From NCBI GenBank assembly GCA_012441205.1, contig GCA_012441205.1_4705.1: a stretch of DNA of 64,000 nucleotides; one strand, given 5' to 3'. The position numbers were made by a program, and so were the translations under genes. The stretch comes from a phage. A model generated the notes under the pieces. That model worked only from the letters and a program-made list of their open reading frames with translations. It was not told the DNA's origin and searched no databases. This document shows positions 1,189 through 64,000 of the stretch, one piece after another. The first letter of the stretch is position 1. Each line of letters opens with the position of its first letter.

Positions 1189-1200
1189 GGAAGATCCTCC

Positions 1201-1575
1201 TTAAACTCCTTGTCGGATCATCACCAACCGGAGCATGTTGTATTCCAATGTAGCGCTTTCTAATTCGAATTCATATCGATACCAGAAATTCGGCTCTAAT
1301 TGACCTACAACACATTTACGAACATCTGTCTGCACCTTCCTCGACAACACCTGTAACAGTTGTGTTATCTCCGGCTTGAAGTAATGCGCCAAACCTAACT
1401 GATCAGAATAAAACAGGCCACAATCAAAGATGGCCTGTAAAATAACATATTCAACCATCAGGTGACGCGCATCGGGGTCAGGGAATGGCGAACGTAAAGC
1501 GAGATCTAACACATCGACGATTGGGCCGACATAAATGGCGGCACGGTACTCACGAATAACACTGATGTTATCCAT
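1201..1575 (-). CDS. hypothetical protein (124 aa)
   Basis: ORF in same-strand operon, 13-nt spacing to the next gene. Confidence 0.5.
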   Translation of the reverse strand: MDNISVIREYRAAIYVGPIVDVLDLALRSPFPDPDARHLMVEYVILQAIFDCGLFYSDQLGLAHYFKPEITQLLQVLSRKVQTDVRKCVVGQLEPNFWYRYEFELESATLEYNMLRLVMIRQGV

Positions 1576-1588
1576 GATAACCTATTCG

Positions 1589-3428: not shown

Positions 3429-3736
3429 GATAGAAATCCTTAGTATGTTTGATATGTTGTTTAATTAACATATTAAGTTTAAAAGAGGTTATGTTTTACG
3501 TATTGTTAATAACGTATTCTTATCTCTATTAAGTTATGTTCTATCTAAAGATAGTAAACAGATATAATGCTCCCCACCTCCCCATTCTCCCAAGTAATAC
3601 TGGCCTACCGGCCCTCTCCTTTTTAAGGGAGAGAGTAAGCATTCAGTATTGCTCAAATGAATAAGCAAAACAGTATAAACTTACCGTCTCGAGTTATCTC
3701 GAGACGGCGTAGTAGTATCTGTTTATCTCTTTTATG
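3429..3736 (-). promoter_or_regulatory. AT-rich intergenic regulatory region with several hairpins
   Basis: 308-nt non-coding, AT-rich stretch between two minus-strand genes; contains C-rich/G-rich inverted repeats around 3585-3640 and the terminator hairpin at 3684-3707. No confident -35/-10 assignment. Confidence 0.4.
3684..3707 (-). terminator. intrinsic terminator
   Basis: Perfect 10-bp inverted repeat CCGTCTCGAG-TTAT-CTCGAGACGG, followed on the minus strand by TAAGTTTATACTGTTTTGC; sits just 3' of the stop of gene 3737..4090. Confidence 0.6.
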
Positions 3737-4090
3737 CTAACAGCCTATTTCTGCATGAACCTTTAACGATTCGAATACATCTTGCTTCTTTATCATCGTC
3801 TTGTATAAACGTGATTGAGCAATGATCTTTATCCATTGTTGTGGATCGCGTAAATTCACATTTTCAAAACGGGGTGGGGTATTATCTCCGTCGAGTCGGA
3901 TATACCCTAAGAGCAATCCTTCATGGTCTCCTCGACGGATTTCGATATGCGGTTTGAGGAAGACATGATTGTCTGGTGGATACCAGCTTACGGTGTAGTA
4001 ATGGTTTCCTGAAACAACGAATTCGTGAACGGCTTTTGTCTCATCGTCAATGACCGCATTTACGCTGGGAATCATTAATTTTTGAAGCAT
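3737..4090 (-). CDS. hypothetical protein (117 aa)
   Basis: ORF followed by terminator hairpin; start overlaps the upstream gene's stop. Confidence 0.45.
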   Translation of the reverse strand: MLQKLMIPSVNAVIDDETKAVHEFVVSGNHYYTVSWYPPDNHVFLKPHIEIRRGDHEGLLLGYIRLDGDNTPPRFENVNLRDPQQWIKIIAQSRLYKTMIKKQDVFESLKVHAEIGC

Positions 4091-4674
4091 GGGACATAAA
4101 CCTCCATCAACATCGCATAAAGCGCACCAAGCCCATGCAGGACTTGGTTAGGTGCAAAGGTCGGAGTGTAGCATACTTGTTCGGTTGGTGCTTGTTGACG
4201 TAAGTCTAACGGATCTCCGTTGATAAGCATCTGCAGGAGATCAGCATCATCTTGCAATGTGTCTTCATCGATATACGCATCAACACAAAGCAGTCGGTGT
4301 AACTGTTCTGGTTTAATTGAAATACCTACAACCATGCAGTTGTTGTAGGTGGCGTTGTCCAGAAAGAAGTGAATGACGCCCGCTTGAGGATCGCCACCGT
4401 AGTGGAGCCAACGCGTAAAACCAGCCGACATCATCCATAGCGGGTTGTGTTGTAACGCACTGACGACGCGGGTCTCGAAATCCAAACCAAACTTCTGGAA
4501 GATTGCGCCCATCTGGAAACGATCTTCATCGAGACGGTAACGGAATATACAGGCATCCGATCCCGTTGAGTTATCATACACCGAAAGATACCCACGATGG
4601 ATTTCCACGGTAACATTGTTGTCGTCAAGCGTGGCGCTCGCAACGCCGTTAGAAAAGGTTGGAACAAAGCTCAT
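4075..4674 (-). CDS. hypothetical protein (199 aa)
   Basis: ORF, start/stop overlap with neighbours (4671-4674). Confidence 0.5.
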   Translation of the reverse strand: MSFVPTFSNGVASATLDDNNVTVEIHRGYLSVYDNSTGSDACIFRYRLDEDRFQMGAIFQKFGLDFETRVVSALQHNPLWMMSAGFTRWLHYGGDPQAGVIHFFLDNATYNNCMVVGISIKPEQLHRLLCVDAYIDEDTLQDDADLLQMLINGDPLDLRQQAPTEQVCYTPTFAPNQVLHGLGALYAMLMEVYVPCFKN

Positions 4675-5222
4675 CTTGTAATCCTTAATTTACCTGAATG
4701 AATTATCGTTGATGGGTCCACGACGCGACCGTATTTCGCGTTACGTAATACACGATGCCCAAAGAAGTCAGCGGTTTCCAAAACAACCGTGTAACAACCC
4801 AGCTGATGTTGATGTCCCCAAAACCGTTCAATGGGAATCCAGCAGGGCGACATGCCTTTGTGTCGCCAATCCGTAACACAGCCGAATTCAGCAAACTGTT
4901 CAGTAAACCACTCGTCAATGTCGGTATCCGTAAAGAGAAACACGTGGTTTTTAACCAGATAAGCGAACCCAGGATAAAAAAGCTGAGGGTCATCTGGGTC
5001 ACGGAGATAAACACGAAGTTTGTCTAGCGTACCCTCGACAACGATTGTATCGGGTAATCCTGGCGGCGTGAACCGAAGTTGGAAGTTATCCTCGTTTGCC
5101 GAGGCGTTAACCAAATACCCCAGTTGAAGGGGTCGATGCAATTCGAAAAGGTTAAACGTTAATGCATATTCGATATACTCTAATCCTATATTCATGTCTG
5201 ACCTATGTGGTATGGACGGCAT
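4671..5222 (-). CDS. hypothetical protein (183 aa)
   Basis: ATG at 5222 with GGAAGG about 8 nt upstream; first gene of the minus-strand block. Confidence 0.5.
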   Translation of the reverse strand: MPSIPHRSDMNIGLEYIEYALTFNLFELHRPLQLGYLVNASANEDNFQLRFTPPGLPDTIVVEGTLDKLRVYLRDPDDPQLFYPGFAYLVKNHVFLFTDTDIDEWFTEQFAEFGCVTDWRHKGMSPCWIPIERFWGHQHQLGCYTVVLETADFFGHRVLRNAKYGRVVDPSTIIHSGKLRITR

Positions 5223-5333
5223 TGCATTGCCTTCCGCGAGTGTAATCAGGAAGGTAATGTAGGTTTATTTTAATCTCCATTTCGCGATGATATGACAGTC
5301 TTTATTACGTTTACCATCTGAGGGAGCATGCTC

Positions 5334-6572
5334 ATGTCTTCTATTTTACAGGTGTTTAATGCGCATGCGGAAGGCATTGACATCGACGAGTATTTTGTTA
5401 ATCAGGTTATCCGTTACGCGACACGCTTCCGTACGCAAGACCAAGAACACATGCGTTTTTTCGGTGGGGTTCTGTTAGGTGTACAGAAAATCCGATTCAC
5501 AACAAGACATAACGATACATGGTTTTCCGACGTCTTGATGATGGATGAAGAAAGCTTACGGCGCGATTTGAGTAAACTACCCTTCTACAATACGCAGACC
5601 AACCGTGTTGCCTCAAACGCCTTTAACCTAAGTTGCTGTTGGTTGCTTTATGCGATCTTCCACAGCAAACAAATCAAAAAAGAAAAGGTTCGTGAAGCCG
5701 GGATGCTTGCAGCAATGCAAGTCCTCCATTATAAATTCATTTGCGGTCTGGTAGCACGACGTTATCCTTATAACGCCGATCCGGCTATCGCCATTAAGGC
5801 GTACGATGAGTTAACCCTCAAATCAGGCATCAAGCGCATGAATAGCTGGAATGAGTACATCGACGAACGCTGTAACGCCATCATTGCGCGCAATAGCACG
5901 CATTTCAGTCGCTGGTCAACCCTGGAACCAGATAGTGTCGCCGAACGTTTTGTGCGTGATGTGAATACCGGAATCCGTAAGGTTATCAACCGTATCACCG
6001 ATACGTACTATGCGATGTATGAAGAGGGTAAGAAGATAGGCACGTCCTCTCAAACTGTAGAATTAGACGACGGCCTCGCTGTTCGCGATATCAAACGCAA
6101 CGAAACCACTTATCGTCAATATCTGTTCGAAATCGCTTATGACCGAACAAGTTTCGTTAAACGTGAACTCATGGTCGTCATCCTCGACGTGCATCATACT
6201 ACCAATCTTTTATCCCTTGAGCGAGCGTTAAGCTATATCAGCGCTAACGTAGAACGACCGACAAGAGACGGAAAACAGGTCTCTCAGATGTTGCGGCTTG
6301 TAATGGAGCATGCTATCGAGTATATCATCTTGAATAAGGTCGATATGCGCGATCTTACGTTCTTATTCTACATGCGTAACGTGTACACGTCCAACCGTAC
6401 CAGCAACCCGAAACTGTTAGAACTGCGTAAACTTGGCTCTGAAGTCATTAAGAAAGCAACCAACGCGAGAAACGACGCTGAAGCTGCAGCGACACGTACC
6501 GGTGTCTTTCTGTATATCCTGCTTCGTGTGTTTAGCCGTAACTATTACGTTCGACGTGCGATGTCACGTTAA
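5334..6572 (+). CDS. hypothetical protein (412 aa)
   Basis: ORF track starts at 5328; the second ATG at 5334 has better spacing (7 nt) to the GAGGGAG RBS at 5320-5326. Plus-strand gene between minus-strand blocks; no motif recognised. Confidence 0.5.
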   Translation: MSSILQVFNAHAEGIDIDEYFVNQVIRYATRFRTQDQEHMRFFGGVLLGVQKIRFTTRHNDTWFSDVLMMDEESLRRDLSKLPFYNTQTNRVASNAFNLSCCWLLYAIFHSKQIKKEKVREAGMLAAMQVLHYKFICGLVARRYPYNADPAIAIKAYDELTLKSGIKRMNSWNEYIDERCNAIIARNSTHFSRWSTLEPDSVAERFVRDVNTGIRKVINRITDTYYAMYEEGKKIGTSSQTVELDDGLAVRDIKRNETTYRQYLFEIAYDRTSFVKRELMVVILDVHHTTNLLSLERALSYISANVERPTRDGKQVSQMLRLVMEHAIEYIILNKVDMRDLTFLFYMRNVYTSNRTSNPKLLELRKLGSEVIKKATNARNDAEAAATRTGVFLYILLRVFSRNYYVRRAMSR

Positions 6573-6714
6573 CAATGTAACGGTAAAACTTTACTGACGT
6601 TGGTTATTATTTGAAGCATAGGGCTTCACCCAGGAGTACCATCCCTTTAAGTCGTTTGTCCTCTCCTGGTTAACTGTCGTTCTCTCACAGTGCTCGACAG
6701 ACCAAAAATGCTCA

Positions 6715-6743
6715 GGCCTCATAGCCTCCTCTGGGAATGGAAC
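6715..6743. terminator. bidirectional hairpin terminator between convergent genes
   Basis: CCTCCTCTGGG-AATGGAA-CCCAGAGGAGG (11-bp stem) followed by ACTATGTTTGCC on the plus strand. Confidence 0.5.
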
Positions 6744-6765
6744 CCAGAGGAGGACTATGTTTGCC

Positions 6766-7086
6766 TTAAAATTCAACGCGACCTTTTGTCGTAAACAATA
6801 CACCTCTTTGCCAACAGAAAAGATCCTCCGATTGAGCGCAAACACGAATACCCGCATCGAATAGATGTTTTGTTCTAGCGCTTAAACAATCAGGATCTTC
6901 TACATACAACAGAAGACGTTGGCATTTATTTTGAATGCGTTCGACAAGGATGTTCTTATCGCTTAAAATAAAATGCGCGTTATCTGTTAAGTTATCGTCG
7001 GTTTCCAGCTGCTTGACAAGTTTGATTAAAATACGTAATTGCTCAAGTGTGTCATGATCAAGTGAATCACCCATGGCGTACCTCAA
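6766..7086 (-). CDS. hypothetical protein (106 aa)
   Basis: ATG at 7086 with GAGGT RBS about 6 nt upstream; lies downstream of the terminase gene after a hairpin-rich spacer. Confidence 0.45.
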   Translation of the reverse strand: MRYAMGDSLDHDTLEQLRILIKLVKQLETDDNLTDNAHFILSDKNILVERIQNKCQRLLLYVEDPDCLSARTKHLFDAGIRVCAQSEDLFCWQRGVLFTTKGRVEF

Positions 7087-7159
7087 CGTTATACGTCGTT
7101 TGTATTATAATACGCTATCGTCTCCCCGCCAGTATTAACGGGGAGTCTGCAGACTACTC

Positions 7160-9391
7160 TTAGAAAAAACCGCCCGGGCGGTATTGGCCCATCGTCATCC
7201 ACGCATTACGAGAAATATTCCGTTCATTCGAAGAGCGGCTTATTTGACGATAAGTATTCGCTCGTTCCTCCCTTGCTTTCGTGATCATCGCATCAATAGA
7301 AACAGCCGCTGAATCCTCCCCACGTATTTTTCCTTTATACGTAAGAAGCTCTGCCTCCAATCGATCCAAGATAAGGCCGTTGGTTTCGGTCTTAAGCAAC
7401 TCATAGATTTCAGCAACGCGTTGACGTAGCTTCGCCTGCTGTTGGTTAAGATACGCTTCATACGGATCGATTTCACCCGTTACAGATGCTGGTAAACGAC
7501 TCATGACTTTAAGTGGATCGATACCGTAATGGATCTGTTTCTTAGCACGCTTGATGAACCACATCGCTAACATCCATGCGAACGTCATGTCATCGTGCAT
7601 TCCATCCTGGTGATCGACACGCCCATCTTTGATAACCAATCCGAGGATCTCGGAACACAGCATCTTGTCACGTAACTGCCCGCGGGTTTCTACAATACCT
7701 TCCATCAAGATGTCGGAATACAACTCCATACGTTTGCGCGCATCCGTTGTGAAGCCTAAATGCCGTTTACGTTGAGCATACCAACTTTCATCACGCATGC
7801 TCAATGGTAATTTCAGGTCTTCGAACATCGCTGGATTATCAGCATGCCTGTCTACAATCGTGTTGTATACGCGTTTGAACACGTCGATGCCCGCTTGCCG
7901 CAAGAACTCTTCAATTGCGTCTAACAGCATGATTGCACTGCTTTTACGTTCAGGAATCAACGTAACGTTCTTAAAACGCATCATGAAGTTGGCCATCCAA
8001 CGAGCAAAAGAAAGCAGACTCAGTTTATTAAAACGTCCTGTCGCAACAACTTCTGCTGTTTCTACATCCACCATCACCAAACCGATAGCGTCACGACCTA
8101 TTGCATCGCTGGTGTCTAAACCAGCAACCACCTTATTGTTCTGCATGTATGTCTCGATTTTACCTCGAGGTATATACCAGTTAATGCAGTAGCCTTCAGG
8201 TGAGATCTCGATATGGTCGATTTCACGTTGTCCCGCCATGATCATCTCAACCATCTCAGCGGTTAACGGGCTTTCTGCTGAACCGTTGGTCCAGATGTTC
8301 ATGTAGTCGCGGTCTTTCTGAAGTTTATCACCTTCCGTTTCGTTCATGGTTTTTGCTAACCATTCATCACTGAAGCCCAGCTGAGCGTGGTTCCATTGTG
8401 CCCCGATCCTGACGGTTGCTTTGCTGAGCTCGCACGGCACGTTGTTCAATACCGTCTGATGCAGATGCTTTTCATTACGGCAGTCAAAGAAACTTTCAGA
8501 GAACGGCGCTGAACGCATGAAAACTTCATAAGCCCATTTGCCTTCGCGTTTATCCAATTCACCTGCTGTTGTCGTATAGATGATACTCGTCAGGTCGCCG
8601 TTGCTTAATGCTTCATCGCGTGCCGCACCCATCGCACCGATACCAGCAGGAACAATGATTTCGATGTATTTCGTAAACGCGGTTTCGTCGCTATGGAATA
8701 GCGGGGTTGTTAGACCACGGCCGATGTTTGTTGCTTGTTTCTTATCCGAACGTGGAATCTTTACCGATAACTTGTTCTTGAAACGTGTGTAGGTTACGTT
8801 CTCTTTGTTCGATGAATCACGGCTATCCAGCGTCCAGAGATACGCAGGCAGCAGATCACGTATACTACGCACATCTTCTACTGTTTTCGTACGGGCATCA
8901 CCGTCTTTTGTTAACTGAATAACCTCGGTGTTTCGACTACGAACATAGGTTAGATAGCAGAACAATCCTAACATGGTCATGGATTTACCCGTCTGACGTA
9001 TCTGTATCTGATACCAGTTCGTTCGGGTAAATATTCCCCAGAGCATCGGAATGTTACCGCGGTTAGCACGGAATGAAATTTTGTTATCACCCGCTTTAGC
9101 CGGAACACGCATCACTTCACGGAAGAAGTACCATGGATTAAGATAGCATTCCGCACTGATCATCTGAATCTGTTCTGACGTCAAATTCGGTGCATGAGGA
9201 TCAACACCAATCAATCTTGGGTTTAATAACGCCATGAAAAACGCAGAGTTTCGGACACCGAATTCACGACGATACAAGATCGCTAAATCACGCCAACTTG
9301 TGTTTGTTGTTTCCCAGTGTGGAACAGCCTGAGGAAAATAATCCCAATCTTCCTCAAACAGGATGATTTTCTTCGGATCGACAATCGACAT
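7160..9391 (-). CDS. terminase large subunit (putative)
   Basis: 743 aa; Walker A-like IRQTGKSMTMLGLF resembles the terminase-type SRQLGKTT pattern (recalled from T4 gp17); strong GGAGGAG RBS; adjacent to large structural-looking genes. The last codons (RPGGFF-stop) coincide with a CCGCCCGGGCGG hairpin plus T-run. Confidence 0.6.
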   Translation of the reverse strand: MSIVDPKKIILFEEDWDYFPQAVPHWETTNTSWRDLAILYRREFGVRNSAFFMALLNPRLIGVDPHAPNLTSEQIQMISAECYLNPWYFFREVMRVPAKAGDNKISFRANRGNIPMLWGIFTRTNWYQIQIRQTGKSMTMLGLFCYLTYVRSRNTEVIQLTKDGDARTKTVEDVRSIRDLLPAYLWTLDSRDSSNKENVTYTRFKNKLSVKIPRSDKKQATNIGRGLTTPLFHSDETAFTKYIEIIVPAGIGAMGAARDEALSNGDLTSIIYTTTAGELDKREGKWAYEVFMRSAPFSESFFDCRNEKHLHQTVLNNVPCELSKATVRIGAQWNHAQLGFSDEWLAKTMNETEGDKLQKDRDYMNIWTNGSAESPLTAEMVEMIMAGQREIDHIEISPEGYCINWYIPRGKIETYMQNNKVVAGLDTSDAIGRDAIGLVMVDVETAEVVATGRFNKLSLLSFARWMANFMMRFKNVTLIPERKSSAIMLLDAIEEFLRQAGIDVFKRVYNTIVDRHADNPAMFEDLKLPLSMRDESWYAQRKRHLGFTTDARKRMELYSDILMEGIVETRGQLRDKMLCSEILGLVIKDGRVDHQDGMHDDMTFAWMLAMWFIKRAKKQIHYGIDPLKVMSRLPASVTGEIDPYEAYLNQQQAKLRQRVAEIYELLKTETNGLILDRLEAELLTYKGKIRGEDSAAVSIDAMITKAREERANTYRQISRSSNERNISRNAWMTMGQYRPGGFF

Positions 9392-54802: not shown

Positions 54803-54834
54803 CCCTCCTCCTTCCCTGTTGGGTTGGAGGAGGG
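54803..54834. terminator. hairpin terminator (conserved family)
   Basis: CCCTCCTCC-TTCCCTGTTGGGTT-GGAGGAGGG followed by TTATGCTGTC. Confidence 0.55.
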
Positions 54835-54848
54835 TTATGCTGTCAAGC

Positions 54849-54864
54849 AAAAAAAAAAAAAAAA
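54849..54864. repeat. 16-nt poly(A)/poly(T) homopolymer tract
   Basis: A16 on the plus strand between two hairpins in a convergent intergenic region; reads as T16 downstream of the minus-strand gene ending at 54910. Confidence 0.8.
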
Positions 54865-55625: not shown

Positions 55626-56039
55626 TTATGTTTTAATATGCACATCGTCAATCCCCTCGGTAATCCAGCCGATGGGAAGGACAATCGTTGTTATCCTGTT
55701 ATGGGTGTAGTGGTTGAGAAAATGGAAATAGTAATTTTTGTTAGACTGTTCGATCCGCAGGTCGAGATGCGCGTCTTCAGGTAACCGTAACCAAGCACCG
55801 TACAGTTCATTAAACTTACGCTGAATTTTACCGGGGTTCATTGGAACCCCACGACCACGACGATGTAGCTGACGTAATGATTCAATCAAACACTCAGAGA
55901 TACCCGTTGTCGTTCCGTTATCGCTTGTATCAATAACGATGAACTCTCGTGACCCACGACCGAGATAAAAGCCAGCGACAAAAGCTGCAGCAACAAAAAT
56001 TATCGTACCGATACCAATATACCAATAGTAAGTATCCAT
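55626..56039 (-). CDS. hypothetical membrane protein (N-terminal transmembrane anchor)
   Basis: ATG at 56039 (MDTYYWYIGIGTIIFVAAAFVAGFYLG...) with GTGAGGT RBS; 137 aa. Confidence 0.45.
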   Translation of the reverse strand: MDTYYWYIGIGTIIFVAAAFVAGFYLGRGSREFIVIDTSDNGTTTGISECLIESLRQLHRRGRGVPMNPGKIQRKFNELYGAWLRLPEDAHLDLRIEQSNKNYYFHFLNHYTHNRITTIVLPIGWITEGIDDVHIKT

Positions 56040-56050
56040 AACGACCTCAC

Positions 56051-56578
56051 TTATACCCAATAGTCGGCAAGCGGTTTTACCTTATTAATGGGCAACTGTA
56101 CTTTACCGATGTTCTCTACATCCGCATCAGCGTAGAGAACAATTTTATCACCGTCTCTTTCCCAACGAATAATGAATCGACCAGGAAGAAGATTACTCTG
56201 TTCAAGAGACGCAGTAACCTGTTGTGTTAAAACAGACAACCAAGCAGGCATCAGTGTTGCAACATCTAAGTCATTTGACCATTCAGCGCGTTGCTCCACT
56301 GGACGTAACATACGTTCGACGGTGCGTTGAACTGTTGCGGTGATATAGCCTTTATCTTCGTCACTGATTGGATCAGGACGAGACACAAAACGTTCAGCAG
56401 GCTTGTGGGTAATATATTCATGCAAATCGATGAGTGGTGTTGTCATAGTACTCGCTCCATCAGAATGTAATTGGGTAACCCGTAGGGTTGTCTGCATGCT
56501 ATTCAGCAGCGCAAAAGCGCCATAAACAACAACGATACCAAGTATAGCCAAAACAGAAATCATTAACGTGTATTGCAT
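56051..56578 (-). CDS. hypothetical membrane protein (N-terminal transmembrane anchor)
   Basis: ATG at 56578 (MQYTLMISVLAILGIVVVYGAFALL...) with GGGGAG 6 nt upstream; 175 aa. Confidence 0.45.
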   Translation of the reverse strand: MQYTLMISVLAILGIVVVYGAFALLNSMQTTLRVTQLHSDGASTMTTPLIDLHEYITHKPAERFVSRPDPISDEDKGYITATVQRTVERMLRPVEQRAEWSNDLDVATLMPAWLSVLTQQVTASLEQSNLLPGRFIIRWERDGDKIVLYADADVENIGKVQLPINKVKPLADYWV

Positions 56579-56679
56579 TGTCATCTCCCCTACATACGCA
56601 TCTTGAAGATCGGTTAAAAACAACAAAAGAAAAAACGATATAAAGCAAGGTCCTCTGATATCAGAGGACCTTGGATCAA

Positions 56680-57336
56680 TTAGCTTGCAGCTTCTTCATT
56701 TGTATCAGGTTTGCTTCCCCCTAACAAACCGTCAAACAGACCCGTATGTTTCAGGTAGAAGAGAGCGATAGCGCCCATTGCTGCTGCGCTCGTCGCCGTT
56801 AACGCAACCCCGGCACGATACTGCCATTTACGGTCAGGCTTTTGATCAAGAGCCATACGACGCATGTATTCAGCCTCTGCTTCATTCCGATGAATTTCGG
56901 ATTCAGCCAAGCGGGCTAAGGTATCGCGGTCAAGGTTATCATAACGTACGTTCATGGTGGTTTCCTCTTGTTTGGAAGTTGATTGCTTAGTGGATTCTTG
57001 GTCAACAGTCGTTTCAGATGGTTCAAACGGCTGGTTGTTCATTTTCTGATCTTTATTGGTCATGATAGACTCCTTCGATTTTTGAGACGAAATTGATTTA
57101 AACCATCGTGGATGGCGGTATTCAGTTTTACATGTGCAGTTAAGTTTCTCGTGCAGGAAAGCGTAAAAACGTTTTGCGCCTACACGTAAGGCTTTCAGCA
57201 TTACCCATCCACGAGCACTCAAACGGTGTAGCTGTTGCGGTATGTCGAGTTTCCTAGCCAAGCGAAAGTATCTTTCAATCACTTCGATAGGAAACCATTG
57301 TTGTTCCACATCGGTGAGACTGAAAGTCTTATCCAT
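56680..57336 (-). CDS. hypothetical protein with C-terminal transmembrane segment; alternative internal start at 57063
   Basis: 218-aa ORF from the ATG at 57336 (weak RBS, about 30 nt after the promoter motif). The in-frame ATG at 57063 has a strong GGAG RBS 7 nt upstream and would give a 127-aa tail-anchored protein (C-terminal ALTATSAAAMGAIALFYL). Confidence 0.45.
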   Translation of the reverse strand: MDKTFSLTDVEQQWFPIEVIERYFRLARKLDIPQQLHRLSARGWVMLKALRVGAKRFYAFLHEKLNCTCKTEYRHPRWFKSISSQKSKESIMTNKDQKMNNQPFEPSETTVDQESTKQSTSKQEETTMNVRYDNLDRDTLARLAESEIHRNEAEAEYMRRMALDQKPDRKWQYRAGVALTATSAAAMGAIALFYLKHTGLFDGLLGGSKPDTNEEAAS

Positions 57337-57367
57337 GATTGAAATCTCGCTGGCTTACTTCACTTAA

Positions 57368-57378
57368 GTAATATAGCC
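57368..57378 (-). promoter_or_regulatory. putative phage promoter motif (GGCTATATTAC on minus strand)
   Basis: Plus-strand GTAATATAGCC, about 30 nt upstream of the ATG at 57336. Confidence 0.4.
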
Positions 57379-57486
57379 GTGAAAAATGTTGGATTAAGTT
57401 AAATACCGCAACCGCAGCTAATTTTATAGGCTTTTAGCCTAAACCAATCATCTTCGGAATCATCATCTTTGAAACAGGAATCTATC

Positions 57487-58308
57487 ATGGAAAAAGTATT
57501 TGTTTGTAAGTTGTTTACCAACGGCAATAGCCAACCAATGTATCTGACCGATCCTGTTCTAGGTAATCGGAACAGTACCGTATTCAAAGAGGCTTTCGAA
57601 TACGCTAAAAATAAAGCCGTGAGAACACTGACGTCTGATGACTGTATCAACGGTATCACGTGGGCAGAGTTAATCGGTGATGCCGTTCGACACTTCGTTC
57701 GGGATGCGAGAAAACGGGAAATCTGTCTCACGACTATTGTTGTGCGTGAAAACGCAGAAATTTTATCAAACGTTTTGGTTGATTTTAATGACGTTTGTGT
57801 GTTTAATCCAGAGAACACGTTTGAACAATACCTTACTGCCCTGAACAACCAGCTCGGTAAAGATATTCATCCCGAATTCGCCAAGTTAACATATCAGTTA
57901 CTTTTTGACGACGTCGATCCAAATACGAAGATCGATACCAGCTTATCGCCCCTGGTAAAGAAATACGGATCGGTTCTCGCTACGGCAACACCCACCACCG
58001 ATGGTGGTTATGATATCGAATTGGATGATCCATTAAAAGAACAAGAGCCTACTGGGGTTAGGGCGGTACATCACAACCTCGTCGTTAAATCTGATGGATG
58101 CGATGAACATTACGCTATGATAAACGATGAAAACAATTACCGTTTAAGTCAAGCGATTGGTGTTCTACGCTATACCGAACCCACTGTTGTAGACGATTAT
58201 ACATCGACAACAACGCACACCACGTGTTTCATTTTCATCTATCCCAATGAAAGTGTGTACATTACCGACTGCTATGGCAATACCGTAGATAGCTTACGTC
58301 GTTATTGA
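57487..58308 (+). CDS. hypothetical protein (273 aa)
   Basis: ATG at 57487 (ORF-track start 57469 is a TTG); followed by a classic terminator. Confidence 0.5.
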   Translation: MEKVFVCKLFTNGNSQPMYLTDPVLGNRNSTVFKEAFEYAKNKAVRTLTSDDCINGITWAELIGDAVRHFVRDARKREICLTTIVVRENAEILSNVLVDFNDVCVFNPENTFEQYLTALNNQLGKDIHPEFAKLTYQLLFDDVDPNTKIDTSLSPLVKKYGSVLATATPTTDGGYDIELDDPLKEQEPTGVRAVHHNLVVKSDGCDEHYAMINDENNYRLSQAIGVLRYTEPTVVDDYTSTTTHTTCFIFIYPNESVYITDCYGNTVDSLRRY

Positions 58309-58314
58309 TTATCG

Positions 58315-58345
58315 AGCCTGTCCTTCGGGGCAGGCTTTTTATGCT
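58315..58345 (+). terminator. rho-independent terminator
   Basis: 9-bp stem AGCCTGTCC / GGGCAGGCT with TTCG loop, followed by TTTTTATGCTGTT. Confidence 0.65.
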
Positions 58346-58411
58346 GTTAAATATCAGGAATAAGAATTAACAAAATAGGAAAATGGTGTGTATATAACAC
58401 AAAGGAGGGAG

Positions 58412-58534
58412 ATGATTATGTTACTCATTCTAATGGAGAGAGCATTGCTGGCGGGTATCTGCGCATTCTCTGTTAAACACGCTGTTGCTATCATGGCTGA
58501 AGAAAGGCGTAATACGCATAATGTATTACGCTGA
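58412..58534 (+). CDS. small hydrophobic protein (38-40 aa) not in ORF track
   Basis: AAAGGAGGGAG RBS (58401-58411), then ATG at 58412 or 58418. Translation MIMLLILMERALLAGICAFSVKHAVAIMAEERRNTHNVLR-stop, with a hydrophobic N-terminal half and basic C-terminus. Preceded by TGTATATAACAC and a TTAACA hexamer about 18 nt further upstream. Confidence 0.4.
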   Translation: MIMLLILMERALLAGICAFSVKHAVAIMAEERRNTHNVLR

Positions 58535-58644
58535 AAACACTGTGTGCATTAGTGTATGACGAGAAATCGTCGAGGCCCCCGTCTTCACGAGGGCCAACAC
58601 CTATGCATGATTATTCATCGTCTGTTAAACAAAAGGTTATAAAC

Positions 58645-58953
58645 ATGAGCAATTTGAACGTTGAATTTACTTCAACAACGCCTGTCATGAATGGTGTTGG
58701 CACTGAAACCAAAATCGTATTAGAACCCATTCCAGGGTTACGCGATCTCGGTGATTTTTATCCACTGATGCCGCGTATACGGAAGGCCTTAAACAGTATC
58801 GATCTTGATTCCAATAAAGATTTCCAACACGATACAGAAAATACCGATCATGTATTGCTGCCATCAGGGATCGCAAAATTCACCTACACGCAAACATTGA
58901 AAGCCTCTGATGGTGAAATCCGTCGTTTTATCGTTGAAGTAGAAAGCGCATAA
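58645..58953 (+). CDS. hypothetical protein (102 aa)
   Basis: ATG at 58645 with AAAAGG about 9 nt upstream (ORF-track start at 58552 looks too early). Confidence 0.45.
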   Translation: MSNLNVEFTSTTPVMNGVGTETKIVLEPIPGLRDLGDFYPLMPRIRKALNSIDLDSNKDFQHDTENTDHVLLPSGIAKFTYTQTLKASDGEIRRFIVEVESA

Positions 58954-58957
58954 AAAC

Positions 58958-58989
58958 CATCCTCCCAACCCGTAAGGGAAGGGAGGATG
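58958..58989. terminator. bidirectional hairpin terminator (conserved family, inverted orientation)
   Basis: CATCCTCCC-AACCCGTAAGGGAA-GGGAGGATG; followed by AAATATGCCGTT on the plus strand and by GTTTTTATGCGCT on the minus strand. The loop is close to the reverse complement of the loops at 41949 and 54812. Confidence 0.55.
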
Positions 58990-59006
58990 AAATATGCCGT
59001 TAAACG

Positions 59007-59636
59007 TTATTCAACAAACCCTGCATTCAACAGATTGTCGTAAACACGATTAGCGACATCAACAGGAGAATGTGTGTTACTGGTATCTATACGCAGCGTT
59101 TTCGCGTCGCCGAGATAGTCCATAAAATCCATGTAACGATAACGTCGTTTATTGAATGTCGCTTCATCGATGTTATCAAACATCTGATGTTTAGCGTGAC
59201 GAACACGGAACCGCCTTAAATACGTAGGATAGTCGATATCCAGATAAACATAGTAAGACGGCATGATAATCGACGGTAGGTTCGGCAACAATGCGTCAAA
59301 CAACTTAACGTTGGCATCATTAACCTGATAAACATACGTCGAAGCAATCGAACGATCGCTAAGCACAGTCTTCCCTTCGTTAAGGGCTGGATGAATCACC
59401 TTGTTGAAGAGATGATTACGTTGCGACATCATCGCCAATAGTTCAGTTTCTGGATCGAATCTGTTCGTTGGTGTCTGATCTTCCAGGATAAGTTTACGAA
59501 TGGCTTCTCCGTAGAGCGTACCACCGGGTTCACGTACGACACAGACGTTGTTTAAACGACTGTGTAAAGACGAGATAACCGAACTCTTTCCTGAATAATC
59601 CAGACCTTCAATAACGATATATTTATTACGAGACAT
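59007..59636 (-). CDS. tmk: thymidylate kinase
   Basis: Start set to the ATG at 59636 (GGAG RBS). YIVIEGLDYSGKSS (P-loop), REPGGT and IHPALNEGKTVLSDRSIASTYVYQ match the Tmk P-loop, REPGGT and DRY/lid regions. Confidence 0.85.
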   Translation of the reverse strand: MSRNKYIVIEGLDYSGKSSVISSLHSRLNNVCVVREPGGTLYGEAIRKLILEDQTPTNRFDPETELLAMMSQRNHLFNKVIHPALNEGKTVLSDRSIASTYVYQVNDANVKLFDALLPNLPSIIMPSYYVYLDIDYPTYLRRFRVRHAKHQMFDNIDEATFNKRRYRYMDFMDYLGDAKTLRIDTSNTHSPVDVANRVYDNLLNAGFVE

Positions 59637-59652
59637 TCCCCGCTCCAATTAA

Positions 59653-60879
59653 CTACTTCGTTTTCGCCGTTATCGGCTGCGATACTGTAATCTCGACCCG
59701 ATCGACATCGGTACGTTTAACGATGATAAGGCTGCGTTCATCACCGAATGGTTCTGAGATCTTACAAGCCTCTTTAAGATTTTCGAGAATCGTGCCATGG
59801 GGTTCAAACACCGCAAAACCGGAACTAGCGTCGATTCTTATTAAATATACACGCACATTGTTTACGGTAATGGTGTCATCCGTCTTGAACCCACAGCAGG
59901 AGGGTAGACAGAACTGACCATTAACGCAATTAGCTAAGTATGCCTCACCACCGAACATTTCTATTAACGTCACCGGTTTAAATGTTTTCTCTGGGAAAGC
60001 ATTATTAAGAATATCGTTTCCATTCACAAACCAGATCGTTACTTTATCTTCGGAATACGCTAGTCTGTATGGTTGGGTTGCGGACGCCTGCGCTTTATGC
60101 TGGTTAAATAACTTTGATTTTGTCGCAATCACAGCACGACCTTGGGCGTCAAAGTACAGAACTTCATACCCAACACATCCGATAAACACGCGACGGTTAT
60201 TAAGTTCCGGAATTCTGACTACTAACGCATTACCATCTTCCGTCGGTGTAATACCACGTAGGATGATAGATTCGTTGTTCAATGTTGAGTTGCTCACGAT
60301 GACGCTTCGCATTACCGCTGGCGACACTATTTCATCTGCTGCAGGTTCAAGTTGCTCCGCTGTTACAGTCACGGATCTGTCTTCCTTTTCAACTGGCCAG
60401 TTGAAAAGGATTGTTTTATTAAGACAAACAATTGGGGTAATTTCGCCGATACTCCGTATCTTGACTGAGGGGCAATTGCACACATACGGAACAAAAACAT
60501 CAATATCGTTGGTCGCTTCTTCAAGCATGCTAGCATACGCCATTGCTTCGGGACGATCGGTGAGATGAATAACAGCATAGACGATATCGTCTTTTAACCA
60601 CGCACGTTTCACTCGTCCTATAACACGATTGATGTCTACAATAACTCTCTGAGCTTTCATCTCCCATTTTACTGCATCAGTACCACCCGCAACCACGTTC
60701 GGTTTATCCGTGTTTACACGATGAAGGAAACTATTGATTATTTCCTCATCGATCTGGATATCCTTTCTCGCAAAATTCAACAACGGAATAACGAACTCAT
60801 TGTTACCGCACTTCTCTGCTCCGCGAATGATAGGAGTACACTTCTTGTTCTCATCTGATCCCCAGATAACTTTAGTCAT
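59653..60879 (-). CDS. hypothetical protein (408 aa)
   Basis: Start set to the ATG at 60879 (GAAGGAAA RBS); Cys-rich in places; no nuclease or phosphoesterase motif recognised. Confidence 0.45.
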   Translation of the reverse strand: MTKVIWGSDENKKCTPIIRGAEKCGNNEFVIPLLNFARKDIQIDEEIINSFLHRVNTDKPNVVAGGTDAVKWEMKAQRVIVDINRVIGRVKRAWLKDDIVYAVIHLTDRPEAMAYASMLEEATNDIDVFVPYVCNCPSVKIRSIGEITPIVCLNKTILFNWPVEKEDRSVTVTAEQLEPAADEIVSPAVMRSVIVSNSTLNNESIILRGITPTEDGNALVVRIPELNNRRVFIGCVGYEVLYFDAQGRAVIATKSKLFNQHKAQASATQPYRLAYSEDKVTIWFVNGNDILNNAFPEKTFKPVTLIEMFGGEAYLANCVNGQFCLPSCCGFKTDDTITVNNVRVYLIRIDASSGFAVFEPHGTILENLKEACKISEPFGDERSLIIVKRTDVDRVEITVSQPITAKTK

Positions 60880-60912
60880 TTTCTGTTTCCTTCTTGGGTT
60901 TTGCACAAGTTT

Positions 60913-61527
60913 CTAACGGCGTTTTGTACCGACCTTCCCATTTCGATGGTCATCAAGAATACGCCATTCTTCGAACAGGAGTTCGGCTGCGAAATAACCT
61001 ACAGCGATGCTGTCTATCGCATGCTCATCAAGATTCGCTAACACAACACCGTTTCTGGGTGTGATGTTCATGAGGTTCAACACTTTCTGGCGAACATCGT
61101 CCTTACCAACACGGGACGTCATAATCCCAACAGCGCGTTTTGCGCTTCGGTTATCAACCCCTAAGAAAGATACCGTAGGATCAAAATCGATAACCGTTGT
61201 ATGAATCGCTGAAAACAGCTCGCTGAGCGCCATACCGCTTTGCTTGAAACGACCGATGAATGGCGTCTCACAAGCGACCGCTTGCGGCTGGTACTCTTGC
61301 AATAACGTTGTCAGTGAACGACGGTGTTCTTGGATACGTGCGGCACGATTACCGTATCCAAGCGCAATATCGCCATCGGGATCATATCGACGTGAAGCGT
61401 GCCATGTCCCTGCATACAGCAGTTCAATATCTTCGACACGCACGTCCAAACGTAGTAACGACGCACCGAGTGTATCGGTGCCAGGGTCGATTGCCAGAAT
61501 ATCGTAAGCGTATTCTGGTGGGATCAT
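60913..61527 (-). CDS. RuvC-like Holliday junction resolvase
   Basis: Start set to the ATG at 61527 (ATGA overlap with the upstream stop). ILAIDPGTDTLGASL, QPQAVACETPF, KRAVGIMTSRVGKDDV and DEHAIDSIAVGYF parallel RuvC ILGIDPGSRVTGYGV, QPDYFAIEQVF, KQTVVGIGSAEKSQV and ADAADALAIAITH. Confidence 0.8.
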   Translation of the reverse strand: MIPPEYAYDILAIDPGTDTLGASLLRLDVRVEDIELLYAGTWHASRRYDPDGDIALGYGNRAARIQEHRRSLTTLLQEYQPQAVACETPFIGRFKQSGMALSELFSAIHTTVIDFDPTVSFLGVDNRSAKRAVGIMTSRVGKDDVRQKVLNLMNITPRNGVVLANLDEHAIDSIAVGYFAAELLFEEWRILDDHRNGKVGTKRR

Positions 61528-62339
61528 GGTGTTACAACAGCCTCTACTGACCATGGGAAGGTTTTCGCAACAACACCTTCCAGGAAGCGTTCAACTTCCG
61601 ATTGCTCATACACCGAAAGCTTTTCGAACGGCGTTTGGTCTTCGGTTAAACCTATCGCGTGAATAGGACCCAGGTCTTTAACCAGAGTGACTTCGCCTTT
61701 AACGCCTTCGCGTTTAACGATGATCGCATGATCATTAACCTTGGGATCATACAGCACGCGCATCATGGTTACCGCGTCATCCGGTTCATGACCGAAATCG
61801 ATGGCAACACGAGCATTCGTCCCTTCATCATCCAGAAGCTTGCTCAGCGCTTTACAACGGTCTTCAATCCAATCCAACGCAACCACGGTTTCTTGGCGTA
61901 GCTGAACCTCAACTTCTTTTCCTTGTTCGTCGATACGTTTCACGGTAACAAAATCGTGTAATAGGCGGTCAGGAAGGAGGGAAGCAATAAGCTCAATGTT
62001 GGGTTCAGGTTTTTCGTTTTCCAGAATGATGGTCGCTTGTGCGTCCAGATGTTCTTTAAAACGGATGTAGCGCGTTAATCGCAGAACTTCATCTTGGGAT
62101 TTTGCGTCTTCGGGAATAATCTCCGTCATGACGTTATAAATCTTTTCAGCGAACGTCGGAATTACGGTGATTGTAATTCGTGCTGGTGTACCACGCTCCT
62201 GGTACTCATCGGCTAACTTCTTCGCCATCCCGTTAAAGTAGGTCTGGAGAAACGGTTGCTGCGTTAAAAACATTTTCTCCAGATCGGAATAGCGATGCTT
62301 GCGTGCATGGCCTAGCTTCTTCATGGGTTTTTTCATCAA
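61524..62339 (-). CDS. hypothetical protein (271 aa)
   Basis: Lies between the SbcC-like and RuvC-like genes; lacks the metallophosphatase motifs expected of an SbcD/Mre11 partner. Confidence 0.45.
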   Translation of the reverse strand: MMKKPMKKLGHARKHRYSDLEKMFLTQQPFLQTYFNGMAKKLADEYQERGTPARITITVIPTFAEKIYNVMTEIIPEDAKSQDEVLRLTRYIRFKEHLDAQATIILENEKPEPNIELIASLLPDRLLHDFVTVKRIDEQGKEVEVQLRQETVVALDWIEDRCKALSKLLDDEGTNARVAIDFGHEPDDAVTMMRVLYDPKVNDHAIIVKREGVKGEVTLVKDLGPIHAIGLTEDQTPFEKLSVYEQSEVERFLEGVVAKTFPWSVEAVVTP

Positions 62340-62357
62340 CAGAAATCCTTATTTGTC

Positions 62358-64000
62358 TTAAATAATCGTGACGTGTTCGTTATATGTTTCAGGGAGAATG
62401 ATGTTCGTTTTATCAAGAACCATACACTCGGCTTTACGGAATGATGCATGGTTGATCACATAGTGACTGATGAACCACACCTGGCTTACGCGGTGACCAT
62501 CAACCAGACGACGAACAAAATCCATGGCATTAGATTGGTGCTGCGGATCAAATGTTGATGCGAATTCATCTAACATCAACGGATAATCCGTAAACCCCTT
62601 GTAATGCATCATCGCGATGATGAACGCGATATTGATAATTTCCTTTTGTCCCTTACTCCCATAAACAATATCTTTTCGCGGTGTCGGATACTTCTCAGTT
62701 AAAAGCGGAAAACGATAGTTCAATCCTTGCGCGTCGATAGCACACGGGAGTATCTGAAGTTGGTATTCCCAAATACTCGCAATGATGCCGTTCATGTACT
62801 CAACGAACGCGTTGATGGGACCCGCAATTGTTTCGGCAATCAGTCCGTTGGATGGACTCAACTCATCCAGAACAAGTTGTGCGTAACTGAGCTGTTCTTC
62901 CACCTCTTTTTGTGTCGTTTCCAACTGAGCCAGAAGCTGCTGGTCGGTTTTAGCTTCCTGTAGTTGCTGTTCGACATGACTTATTCGGCGAACTGTATCA
63001 GACATCGCAGCACGTAACGATTTCGTGTAGAGGTGTTGCAGATACTCTAACCACAGTTGCGTTAACGCTTTATCGCTGTTATCAGAACGTACCTGATCTT
63101 CCATAATCGCCGTAATGGTTTCCAATCTACCTTCCGTAGCTGTGATGGCTTGTGTTAACCGCTCAACGGTTGTTAACAACTCTGTCCTGTTCTTATAAAG
63201 CAATTCTCGACGTTGCTGTAACGGTTCAACATCAACCGCTTGTACACGTTCGAGCATGCCTTGAAGATGTTTACGTTCTTGTTCGGCTTGTGTATAACGT
63301 GCGAGTTTCTCGAATGCAAGCAACCAATCATTAATGATTCCAATGCTGCGGAATCCTAATCCGTTTTTACGTCCTTCTTCCAGCAGATTGTCCCACATGG
63401 GTTTAATGGCGTAATAATCCTTCGTCCAACGTGTTAACTGACGATGTTGTTCCATCCAGAGCGTATAACGCTGAACCTTCTCGCTAAGCTCAGCTAACGA
63501 TTTCTCTTGTTCTTCAACCCAAGCACGGCCTTTCTGAATGCGTTGTTCAATACTCGCTTTGCTGGTCTTTTCCGTTTCACCAACATGAAAGCGATAATTG
63601 CATTTTGGACAGCTGGTCTGGGGTTGATGATTCAGATGGTCGAGATGCGCTTCCAAATCGGCTAACGCATGTTTCGCGTTACGCAAACGCATTCTTGCTG
63701 CCTCTTCCTCCTTGATGTAAGCTTCAGCATCGTAAACATGATAGGTGTTGTCGGTATCAATCCATTCTTGCAATAGTTCCGTTAACGGAGCCTGAACTTG
63801 TGTGAGCTGTTGTAAACAAACCGCAGCGTCCAGATTCATCGTTAAAAGCTCACCTGGATGATCTTGCTGAAGTTGTTCGTCCAAACATGCAATGCGGGCT
63901 TTAATTTGATCGATATCACCTTCGCCAGACTGTTTCAACTGGTCAAGGATATTATCGATACCCAACAGCTCGTCAACCTGACTTTCGAGTTTTGCATTCG
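62358..64000 (-). CDS. SbcC/Rad50-like SMC-family ATPase, 5'-partial (N-terminal Walker A lobe lies beyond the window)
   Basis: C-terminal ABC lobe: degenerate signature motif YGSKGQKEIINIAF, Walker B LMLDEFAS, H-loop VWFISHY; long coiled-coil region with a CPKC zinc-hook-like motif. The reading frame is open to the window end. Confidence 0.7.
   Translation of the reverse strand, partial: NAKLESQVDELLGIDNILDQLKQSGEGDIDQIKARIACLDEQLQQDHPGELLTMNLDAAVCLQQLTQVQAPLTELLQEWIDTDNTYHVYDAEAYIKEEEAARMRLRNAKHALADLEAHLDHLNHQPQTSCPKCNYRFHVGETEKTSKASIEQRIQKGRAWVEEQEKSLAELSEKVQRYTLWMEQHRQLTRWTKDYYAIKPMWDNLLEEGRKNGLGFRSIGIINDWLLAFEKLARYTQAEQERKHLQGMLERVQAVDVEPLQQRRELLYKNRTELLTTVERLTQAITATEGRLETITAIMEDQVRSDNSDKALTQLWLEYLQHLYTKSLRAAMSDTVRRISHVEQQLQEAKTDQQLLAQLETTQKEVEEQLSYAQLVLDELSPSNGLIAETIAGPINAFVEYMNGIIASIWEYQLQILPCAIDAQGLNYRFPLLTEKYPTPRKDIVYGSKGQKEIINIAFIIAMMHYKGFTDYPLMLDEFASTFDPQHQSNAMDFVRRLVDGHRVSQVWFISHYVINHASFRKAECMVLDKTNIILPETYNEHVTII

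Follow-up and report, generated by a model that had tools for sequence, protein, structure and literature searches.

At one end of the window, by which we mean the whole 64,000-nt stretch of phage DNA analysed (contig GCA_012441205.1_4705.1), lies part of a gene for a protein resembling SbcC/Rad50 ATPases, with an atypical signature motif and no recognisable SbcD gene beside it. The question raised by this locus is whether the ATPase works with an unusual nuclease encoded in the same block of genes, as a first, sequence-only reading had proposed, or with a conventional partner encoded elsewhere. Our comparisons favor the second answer: with a probability of roughly 0.85, the feature is predicted to be the 3’ two-thirds of a Rad50/SbcC-type ATPase gene belonging to a Goslar-like member of the nucleus-forming jumbo phages (Chimalliviridae), with its SbcD/Mre11-type partner encoded in another part of the genome.

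Identity and motifs of the ATPase

At the DNA level the window shares approximately 96% identity with Goslar, a jumbo phage of E. coli. On the minus strand, 546 codons without an internal stop run from the window edge down to a stop codon at 62358-62360, and because the gene is truncated at that edge the “TTG start” at 63965 in the list of open reading frames was rejected as an artefact. Goslar gp012 (818 aa), annotated as a “putative SbcC-like protein”, differs from the window fragment at 4 of 546 amino acids; its orthologues are phiKZ ORF165 and SPN3US gp186. The first 272 codons, with the Walker A motif among them, fall outside the window and were read from this Goslar orthologue, and residue numbers here refer to the full-length protein.

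The assignment to the SbcC/Rad50 family, and with it the CxxC hook, was borne out by profile searches. The window fragment matches the PHROG family phrog_77 (“SbcC-like subunit”) with E=3.3e-44, a profile built from 48 SbcC sequences finds P. furiosus Rad50 (3qku) as its top match in the PDB (E=1.1e-13), and an hhalign comparison with T4 gp46 gives 93% probability (E=2.6e-7). The assignment rests on profiles because the Pfam SMC_N model scores the protein at 24 bits, below its cutoff of 40, and a PDB search with the single sequence returned nothing significant. The gene is real, ordinary and already known, and it is present in nearly all phiKZ-like, nucleus-forming jumbo phages.

The LMLDEFAS, FISHY, SKGQKE and CPKC motifs picked out from the sequence were all located at the expected features (Table 1) and are conserved when counted over 48 SbcC homologues; as a set they lie far beyond chance. 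In the Goslar orthologue the Walker A P-loop reads LILGSNGSGKSS, and its residues G35, N37, G38, G40, K41, S42 and S43 are invariant in the 48 homologues. Walker B residues D749 and E750 and D-loop residue D756 are likewise present in 48 of 48. In the alignment of the C-terminal lobe with P. furiosus Rad50, the Walker B/D-loop stretch falls opposite LILDEPTPYLDE and the H-loop opposite “LVSH” of Rad50. Between the two ATPase lobes lie approximately 480 residues with few Pro and Gly and many E, K, Q, R, L and A, and the profile matches coiled-coil and SMC-arm structures; the insertion is a putative coiled coil. Both hook cysteines are found in at least 47 of the 48 homologues, and region 361-458 of the profile aligns with the Rad50 zinc-hook structure 1l8d (E approximately 1e-3).

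The signature motif had been called degenerate, and this holds insofar as it departs from SGGE: the first Gly of the canonical motif is missing throughout the family. Position +1 is Gly in none of the 48 homologues, position +2 is G in 23, S in 19 and A in 6, and position +3 is M in 27, Q in 15, I in 5 and L in one. The motif aligned with SKGQKE in T. maritima SMC is SGGEK. The signature of T4 gp46 is SEGEK, which shares an S-x-G-[Q/E]-K pattern with SKGQK, and the departure is therefore no sign of lost function.

Table 1. Positions of the ATPase gene, its motifs and its downstream neighbours in the window.
Feature	Position	Strand	Remarks
SbcC/Rad50-like ATPase, C-terminal 546 codons and stop	62358..64000	-	Orthologue of Goslar gp012
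CPKC zinc-hook motif, C402/C405	63600..63611	-	Midpoint of the helical insertion
Signature motif SKGQKE, S720-E725	62640..62657	-	Ser in 48/48 homologues
Walker B LMLDEF (62562-62579), then D-loop ASTFD (62547-62561)	62547..62579	-	
H-loop FISHY, H784	62460..62474	-	His in 47/48 homologues
271-aa ORF (Goslar gp011)	61524..62339	-	18 nt downstream of sbcC; clade-specific, not Mre11/SbcD
RuvC-like Holliday junction resolvase (Goslar gp010)	60913..61554	-	Pfam RuvC 26.0 bits (cutoff 22.2); phrog_159 E=1.9e-21
417-aa ORF (Goslar gp009)	59653..60906	-	Not Mre11/SbcD
Thymidylate kinase, Tmk (Goslar gp008)	59007..59648	-	Pfam Thymidylate_kin E=9.8e-28

The SbcD-like partner

That no SbcD gene lies near the ATPase gene was correct. 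The search for one elsewhere in the genome that the sequence-only reading had suggested was run in Goslar, and it found gp178, an SbcD-like metallophosphatase whose public annotation is “hypothetical”, approximately 81 kb from sbcC and approximately 18.6 kb before the point at which the window starts. Gp178 matches the SbcD-like family phrog_100 (E=1.8e-40) and is 28% identical to SPN3US gp27, the “SbcCD D subunit” (E=5e-23). The top 14 PDB matches of its family profile are all Mre11 or SbcD, and hhalign pairs the family with T4 gp47 at 90.6% probability. Here too the profiles carry the result: the Pfam Metallophos model by itself gives gp178 a sub-threshold 14.8 bits, and a single-sequence PDB search found nothing significant.

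The phosphoesterase motifs of gp178 read DIH, GDVFD, GTNLHD, MHG and GHIH. All eight SbcD homologues keep motifs II-V unchanged and seven of them have motif I, with G55, D56, G95, T96, H99, D100, H171, G172, G208, H209 and H211 invariant in all eight. Motif III in this family is GTxxHD rather than GNHD. A regular-expression scan for metallophosphatases in ORFs of at least 80 aa, run over the window and all of the Goslar genome, found neither a strict match nor a GNH[DE] motif; the strict pattern misses the Goslar SbcD because the family carries GTxxHD, whereas a loose DxH...GDxx[DEN] pattern does match gp178. Two other Goslar proteins were considered and set aside: gp157 (185 aa), labelled a “metallophosphoesterase”, is instead a small Metallophos_2/phrog_547 phosphoesterase, and gp147 is an unrelated 3’-5’ exonuclease of the Rv2179c family.

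Both genes are found together on a single 243,814-bp Goslar-like contig (locus tags LRN42_000220 and LRN42_000140), and they occur in the same jumbo-phage genera. Tblastn found SbcC in 287 phage records and SbcD (gp178) in 315, with equal counts for the two proteins in the phages of seven host genera (Pseudomonas 81, Erwinia 62, Salmonella 24, Serratia 21, Aeromonas 19, Klebsiella 16, Ralstonia 13). A gp178-like gene, seen in Goslar and in Goslar-like contigs, is probably present in the window’s own genome as well, because the window is so nearly identical to Goslar. Since an SbcD-type partner is encoded in Goslar, no unusual partner is needed, and the proposal of a non-canonical nuclease is not supported: gp178 is SbcD-like, it shares the genera of SbcC, and the split arrangement has been published. 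For annotation, the consequence is that gp178 and its near-identical copies, approximately 250 of them in public assemblies derived from E. coli, Salmonella and Shigella, all labelled “hypothetical”, are the SbcD-like partner.

The ATPase has a split ABC head, with Walker A in the N-terminal lobe and the signature, Walker B, D-loop and H-loop in the C-terminal lobe, the lobes being parted by a helical insertion of approximately 480 residues with the CxxC zinc hook at its centre. By homology, ATP and the hook would each mediate dimerisation, and the ATPase would act with the SbcD/Mre11-type metallophosphatase on DNA ends and hairpins. This processing would supply phage recombination and the replication that depends on it, as T4 gp46/gp47 does. 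For the chimallivirus proteins, the physical complex, the two enzymatic activities (ATPase and nuclease) and a part in recombination are inferred from these relationships.

The genes downstream of sbcC

The two uncharacterised proteins near sbcC had been said to have no metallophosphatase motifs, and this was confirmed: neither has a family match in Pfam, PHROG or NCBIfam, and neither is the divergent Mre11/SbcD that would have made this a standard adjacent pair. In the 271-aa protein none of phosphoesterase motifs I-V was found. An exhaustive HMMER search of 1.84 billion representative sequences yielded just three credible relatives, with none detected outside the Goslar clade; the other matches, an ankyrin-repeat protein (the matched region shows scattered sub-threshold Pfam matches) and one 103-aa protein, were rejected. 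An AlphaFold2 model from a four-sequence alignment was unusable (pLDDT 48.5), and in Foldseek nothing rose above noise (no match at E<=0.001). Within the Goslar clade the 271-aa gene always directly follows sbcC, and no similar gene was found beside sbcC in other chimalliviruses. The 275-aa ORF that follows sbcC in the distant relative L009 was examined as a counterpart and rejected, BLASTP finding no similarity.

The 417-aa ORF probably encodes a protein of 408 aa that starts at Met10. At E<=0.01 its relatives come from at least 181 distinct 90%-identity clusters, and the 120 listed relatives are 63-99% identical to it. The N-terminal domain is strikingly hypervariable and the C-terminal part conserved, per-column entropy peaking at residues ~40-160; a test for a diversity-generating retroelement acting on the hypervariable region found no template-like repeat in the window. 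In Foldseek, the confident part of the structural model matches the T4 gp21 protease (5jbl, E=6.5e-5), as well as numerous prohead proteases of phages, and the modelled N-terminal domain thus looks like a prohead-protease-like fold rather than a nuclease.

Alternative readings and comparison with known systems

The sequence-only reading would have made the block from sbcC to Tmk a self-contained recombination-repair cassette, in which the ATPase acts with a non-canonical nuclease of the same operon, whether the 271-aa, the 417-aa or the RuvC-like protein. In favor of this, the five genes are co-oriented and closely spaced, with only the short gap after sbcC given in Table 1 and no convincing minus-strand terminator inside the block, and a relative with an SbcC of only 51% identity also has sbcC, a ~275-aa ORF, RuvC, a small ORF and Tmk in this order. 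A sigma-70 promoter scan was uninformative because the phage has its own RNA polymerases. Set against this, the closest relative has a canonical-type SbcD with the genus distribution of SbcC, the genes downstream of sbcC in other chimalliviruses are unrelated, and the block is conserved only within the Goslar clade, which is also the range of the 271-aa protein’s detectable relatives. Neither unknown protein bears nuclease or metallophosphatase signatures, and the fold suggested for the 417-aa N-terminal domain belongs to proteases. We therefore regard a cassette of this kind as very unlikely.

Quite unlikely, in our view, is that SbcC serves mainly as a nuclease-independent, SMC-like tether or organiser of DNA in the phage nucleus, its relaxed signature reflecting an ATP turnover that is slow or regulatory, and the SbcD-like protein working separately. 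The family signature without its first Gly and usually with Met at +3, the lack of linkage between sbcC and sbcD, database names such as “SMC domain-containing” or “RecN-like” for several homologues, and the SMC3 and SMC6 structures among the SbcC profile matches would all fit such a role. The best structural relatives, however, are Rad50 and not SMC proteins, the near-invariant CxxC hook fits the Rad50 hook structure, the genus distribution matches that of SbcD, and the T4 protein of the genetically characterised gp46/gp47 complex likewise has no first Gly. The chance that the protein is no repair factor but the ABC-ATPase of an OLD, PtuA or Gabija-like system for defence or counter-defence is very small: the N-terminal P-loop does match retron PtuA ATPases weakly (E of ~1e-5 to 1e-6, over ~45 residues only), but these matches are confined to the Walker A strand, the long helical insertion with its hook is absent from OLD, PtuA and Gabija-like families, and the gene is a core gene of the whole phage family and essential according to the literature.

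A Rad50/SbcC-type ATPase with a dispersed SbcD/Mre11-type partner remains our reading, and within it there is room for departures from the textbook. The signature with no first Gly and mostly Met at +3, and GTxxHD in place of GNHD in SbcD, form the basis for supposing that the chimallivirus SbcCD is a mechanistically divergent Mre11-Rad50 machine, perhaps with the Goslar-clade 271-aa protein as an accessory or regulatory subunit, which we consider unlikely. In Mre11 the Asn of motif III GNHD is a metal ligand. Because GTxxHD replaces GNHD in motif III, the biochemistry of this SbcD could differ from that of textbook SbcCD. Both variants are family-wide and are relevant to DNA-end processing inside the phage nucleus. 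Beyond annotation, the significance of the locus is small, this being a known core gene of nucleus-forming jumbo phages that published genetics has found to be essential.

Practically all jumbo phages have SbcC and SbcD (PMC7824862). Dispersal of sbcC and sbcD is the normal state in phiKZ-related phages, and the genes were reported in 2016 to be “drastically separated” in phiKZ relatives (PMC5105663). The window gene resembles phiKZ ORF165 and the SPN3US pair gp186 and gp27 in its length of ~800-860 aa, its motifs and this dispersal (PMC5105663), and the divergently transcribed, phiKZ-gp164-like baseplate gene upstream of sbcC is also conserved in phages of the phiKZ/SPN3US type. By contrast, SbcC proteins of chimalliviruses other than Goslar are only 22-28% identical to it, and the downstream 271-aa ORF, RuvC, hypervariable ORF and Tmk are specific to the Goslar clade when compared with phiKZ/SPN3US. 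In SPN3US, gp186 (SbcC) is essential and gp27 is the SbcD (PMC5105663). In phiKZ, orf165 tolerated no transposon insertion and scored “+” in both columns of an antisense-knockdown essentiality screen.

Cellular E. coli SbcCD and archaeal and eukaryotic Mre11-Rad50 share the split ABC head, the metallophosphatase partner and a long insertion with a CxxC hook, predicted to be helical in the phage protein, and in the PDB the SbcC and gp178 family profiles match Rad50, Mre11 and SbcD structures best. The cellular systems differ in having the SGGE signature and both genes in one operon, and the similarity to them is detectable only by profiles. T4 gp46/gp47, the genetically characterised phage SbcCD (record note; PMC5105663), is remotely homologous in both subunits (hhalign probabilities of 93% and 91%). 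T4 gp46 has the hook CPTC where the window protein has CPKC, the signature SEGEK against SKGQK, Walker B LILDEVFDGSFD against LMLDEFASTFD and the H-loop FIISH against WFISH; it is shorter, at 560 aa, with a far shorter helical insertion. Motif III of T4 gp47 is canonical GNHD, in contrast to GTxxHD in the chimallivirus SbcD, and T4 genes 46 and 47 are nearly adjacent, with two small ORFs between them, whereas Goslar sbcC and sbcD lie tens of kilobases apart.

The sbcC frame and its family assignment

The minus-strand frame of sbcC, the SbcC/Rad50-like ATPase gene, is uninterrupted for 546 codons from the right edge of the window to its stop codon at 62358-62360. The gene is truncated at the window edge, and a 535-aa 'ORF' with a TTG start in the ORF tool listing is an artefact. 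By megablast, the only phage match of 56000-64000 is Escherichia phage vB_EcoM_Goslar (96% identity); this jumbo phage encodes a nuclear-shell protein and a PhuZ tubulin, and its positions 182,379-237,307 joined to 1-9,141 are collinear with the entire window. The Goslar orthologue of the window gene is gp012 (818 aa, annotated 'putative SbcC-like protein'), with 4 differences over the 546 residues. In gp012 the 272 N-terminal residues, whose counterpart is outside the window, contain the Walker A motif LILGSNGSGKSS. The linear Goslar record ends at 237,307, and at approximately 54810-54864 the window reads straight through from there to position 1. The source assembly thus has a different start point from the reference, which is what a genome with circular permutation or terminal redundancy would give.

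All of the motifs quoted in the sequence-only reading are found in the sbcC frame. We consider the predicted Rad50/SbcC assignment sound because of a PHROG match (phrog_77, 'SbcC-like subunit of palindrome specific endonuclease', E=3.3e-44), motif conservation, Rad50 profile matches and alignment with T4 gp46 (hhalign, 93% probability); Pfam SMC_N remained below threshold on the fragment (24 bits, cutoff 40). Database searching gave 49 homologues, all but one with lengths of 802-861 aa, and tblastn found 287 phage records, essentially phiKZ-like jumbo phages of Pseudomonas, Erwinia, Salmonella, Vibrio, Serratia, Aeromonas, Klebsiella and Ralstonia. An SbcC alignment of 48 sequences shows no variation in Walker A, the Walker B Asp-Glu, the D-loop Asp, the signature Ser or hook C405; hook C402 is kept in at least 90% of the sequences and the H-loop His in 47 of them. 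The best PDB match of the 48-sequence profile is P. furiosus Rad50 (3qku, E=1.1e-13), and over the CxxC region the profile finds the isolated zinc hook of Rad50 (1l8d) as well; the hook lies halfway along an insertion of ~480 helix-prone residues.

Features of sbcC, its neighbours and the SbcD-like gene (window coordinates unless marked)
Feature	Position	Strand	Remark
Hook CPKC	63600-63611	minus	motif read in translated frame
Signature SKGQKE	62640-62657	minus	motif read in translated frame
Walker B LMLDEF	62562-62579	minus	motif read in translated frame
D-loop ASTFD	62547-62561	minus	motif read in translated frame
H-loop FISHY	62460-62474	minus	motif read in translated frame
271-aa ORF	61524-62339	minus	directly 3' of sbcC
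417-aa ORF (Goslar gp009)	59653-60906, most variable ~60360-60886	minus	hypervariable
Palindrome	60383-60410		within 417-aa gene coding sequence
gp013 'baseplate assembly protein'	L001:9984-11072, just past window right edge	divergent from sbcC	phiKZ gp164-like
gp178	Goslar NC_048170.1 162609-163751 (L004:41610-42752)	minus	outside window; SbcD-like

Adjacent genes and a probable SbcD-like partner

Family, motif and fold searches bear out the earlier view that the two unknown neighbours of sbcC lack metallophosphatase motifs. No relevant Pfam, PHROG or NCBIfam match was found for the 271-aa protein, which matches a PHROG 'head scaffolding protein' weakly (E=0.006), and its credible relatives number only three among 1.84 billion representatives, all in the Goslar clade, the most distant found being 45% identical. 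A fold search gave no match from its AlphaFold2 model, which was unusable for this (pLDDT 48.5); the low-confidence model suggests repeated units of a helix plus three strands. For the 417-aa protein, family searches of Pfam, PHROG and NCBIfam gave no match, and its model is confident only in the N-terminal domain, which resembles prohead proteases and not phosphoesterases. Neither of these two proteins is a divergent Mre11, and so sbcC forms a standard pair with neither. The 271-aa ORF is confined to the Goslar clade, with no relatives detected elsewhere.

Looking for SbcD/Mre11 elsewhere in the genome, as had been proposed, led in Goslar to gp178 (380 aa, annotated 'hypothetical protein'). 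The genome of the closest relative encodes an SbcD-like candidate partner, and the idea of a missing or non-canonical one is not supported. Goslar gp178 matches phrog_100 'SbcD-like subunit' (E=1.8e-40) and SPN3US gp27, the SbcD of that phage (28% identity, E=5e-23), and has five phosphoesterase motifs, DIH, GDVFD, GTNLHD, MHG and GHIH, of which II-V are invariant across eight chimallivirus homologues. The top 14 PDB matches of the eight-sequence profile are exclusively Mre11/SbcD (best E=2.3e-6), and it aligns with T4 gp47 at 90.6% probability. Because motif III is GTxxHD in place of GNHD, as across the SbcD-like family, a strict metallophosphatase motif scan and Pfam Metallophos (14.8 bits, below threshold) both missed gp178. 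In Goslar coordinates the gene is ~81 kb from sbcC and precedes the start of the window by ~18.6 kb; among public assemblies, both genes are on one 243,814-bp Goslar-like contig (LRN42_000220 and LRN42_000140, 80 locus-tag numbers apart). By tblastn, gp178 is found in 315 phage records, with counts equal to those of SbcC in seven genera. Some 250 near-identical proteins, annotated 'hypothetical', come from E. coli, Salmonella and Shigella-derived assemblies; these and gp178 are predicted SbcD/Mre11-like nucleases. Separation of sbcC from sbcD in phiKZ-related phages has been published (PMC5105663).

The sbcC, 271-aa, RuvC-like, 417-aa and Tmk genes share one orientation and are tightly packed, and had been read as a possible recombination-repair cassette. 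Their order is retained in a relative with a 51%-identical SbcC, where the fourth gene encodes only 161 aa, but the genes 3' of sbcC are unrelated in a metagenomic chimallivirus, 201phi2-1, Eowyn and PhiEaH1; the module is thus local gene order and not a conserved functional unit. The only neighbour kept beside sbcC across chimalliviruses is the divergently transcribed upstream gene, Goslar gp013, whose homologue in Eowyn (E=4e-25) is a phiKZ gp164-like protein. This is a structural gene (baseplate or virion), and its junction with sbcC is without obvious functional link.

The hypervariable 417-aa gene

The SbcC sequences of Goslar-like phages fall into a single 90%-identity cluster (483 sequences), and for the 417-aa protein the matches at E<=0.01 comprise at least 181 proteins, each from a different 90%-identity cluster, with 63-99% identity to the window copy among the 120 listed. 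Variation is concentrated at residues ~40-160, the C-terminal part being nearly invariant, and the corresponding DNA, 60360-60886, is the sole stretch of the region without a megablast match to Goslar; the window and Goslar copies are 62% identical, with flanks at 96-98%. The variable N-terminal domain (~140 aa) is modelled as prohead-protease-like (T4 gp21, E=6.5e-5), and has no invariant His or Ser across homologues; the 161-aa ORF that stands alone at this position in the relative is its homologue (hhalign, 96%). No diversity-generating retroelement template repeat was present in the window. A perfect palindrome with a 12-bp stem, TCCTTTTCAACTGG/CCAGTTGAAAAGGA, lies at the edge of the segment diverging from Goslar. 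The pattern of variation suggests a candidate arms-race gene, which may merit separate study.

Predicted function and the signature motif

We observe SbcC homology, motif conservation and a matching distribution of sbcC and sbcD-like genes, and the window gene most likely encodes the ATPase subunit of a phage SbcCD / Mre11-Rad50 complex. The two proteins would form an active complex, possibly localised to the phage nucleus, in which ATP would drive head dimerisation via the signature Ser and Walker motifs, the zinc hook would link arm to arm, and the ATPase and the SbcD-like nuclease would together, as in T4, open DNA ends and resect them for recombination-dependent replication. Amber mutants indicate that SPN3US SbcC is essential (PMC5105663). 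The phiKZ orthologue, orf165, has no transposon insertions and scores '+' in both columns of an antisense-knockdown essentiality screen. SbcC is a recognised core family of jumbo phages (PMC7824862); this, the Goslar gene annotation and the sbcC/sbcD split were already known. New, at annotation grade only, are gp178 as an unlabelled SbcD and the description of family-wide motif variants.

The signature had been called degenerate, which is literally correct and holds family-wide, but this is no sign that the enzyme is defective or unusual. In the 48-sequence alignment the position after the invariant Ser is never Gly (S22, T6, D4, A4, K3, R3, E3, V1), the second is a small residue (G23, S19, A6), and the third is Met in 27, Gln in 15, Ile in 5 and Leu in 1. 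In a pairwise alignment with T. maritima SMC, S-K-G-Q-K falls opposite S-G-G-E-K. The gp46/gp47 complex of T4 is genetically characterised, and its ATPase, gp46, has in translation hook CPTC, Walker B LILDEVFDGSFD, H-loop FIISH and signature SEGEK, and the Goslar-type SKGQK therefore shares with it the common form S-x-G-[Q/E]-K.
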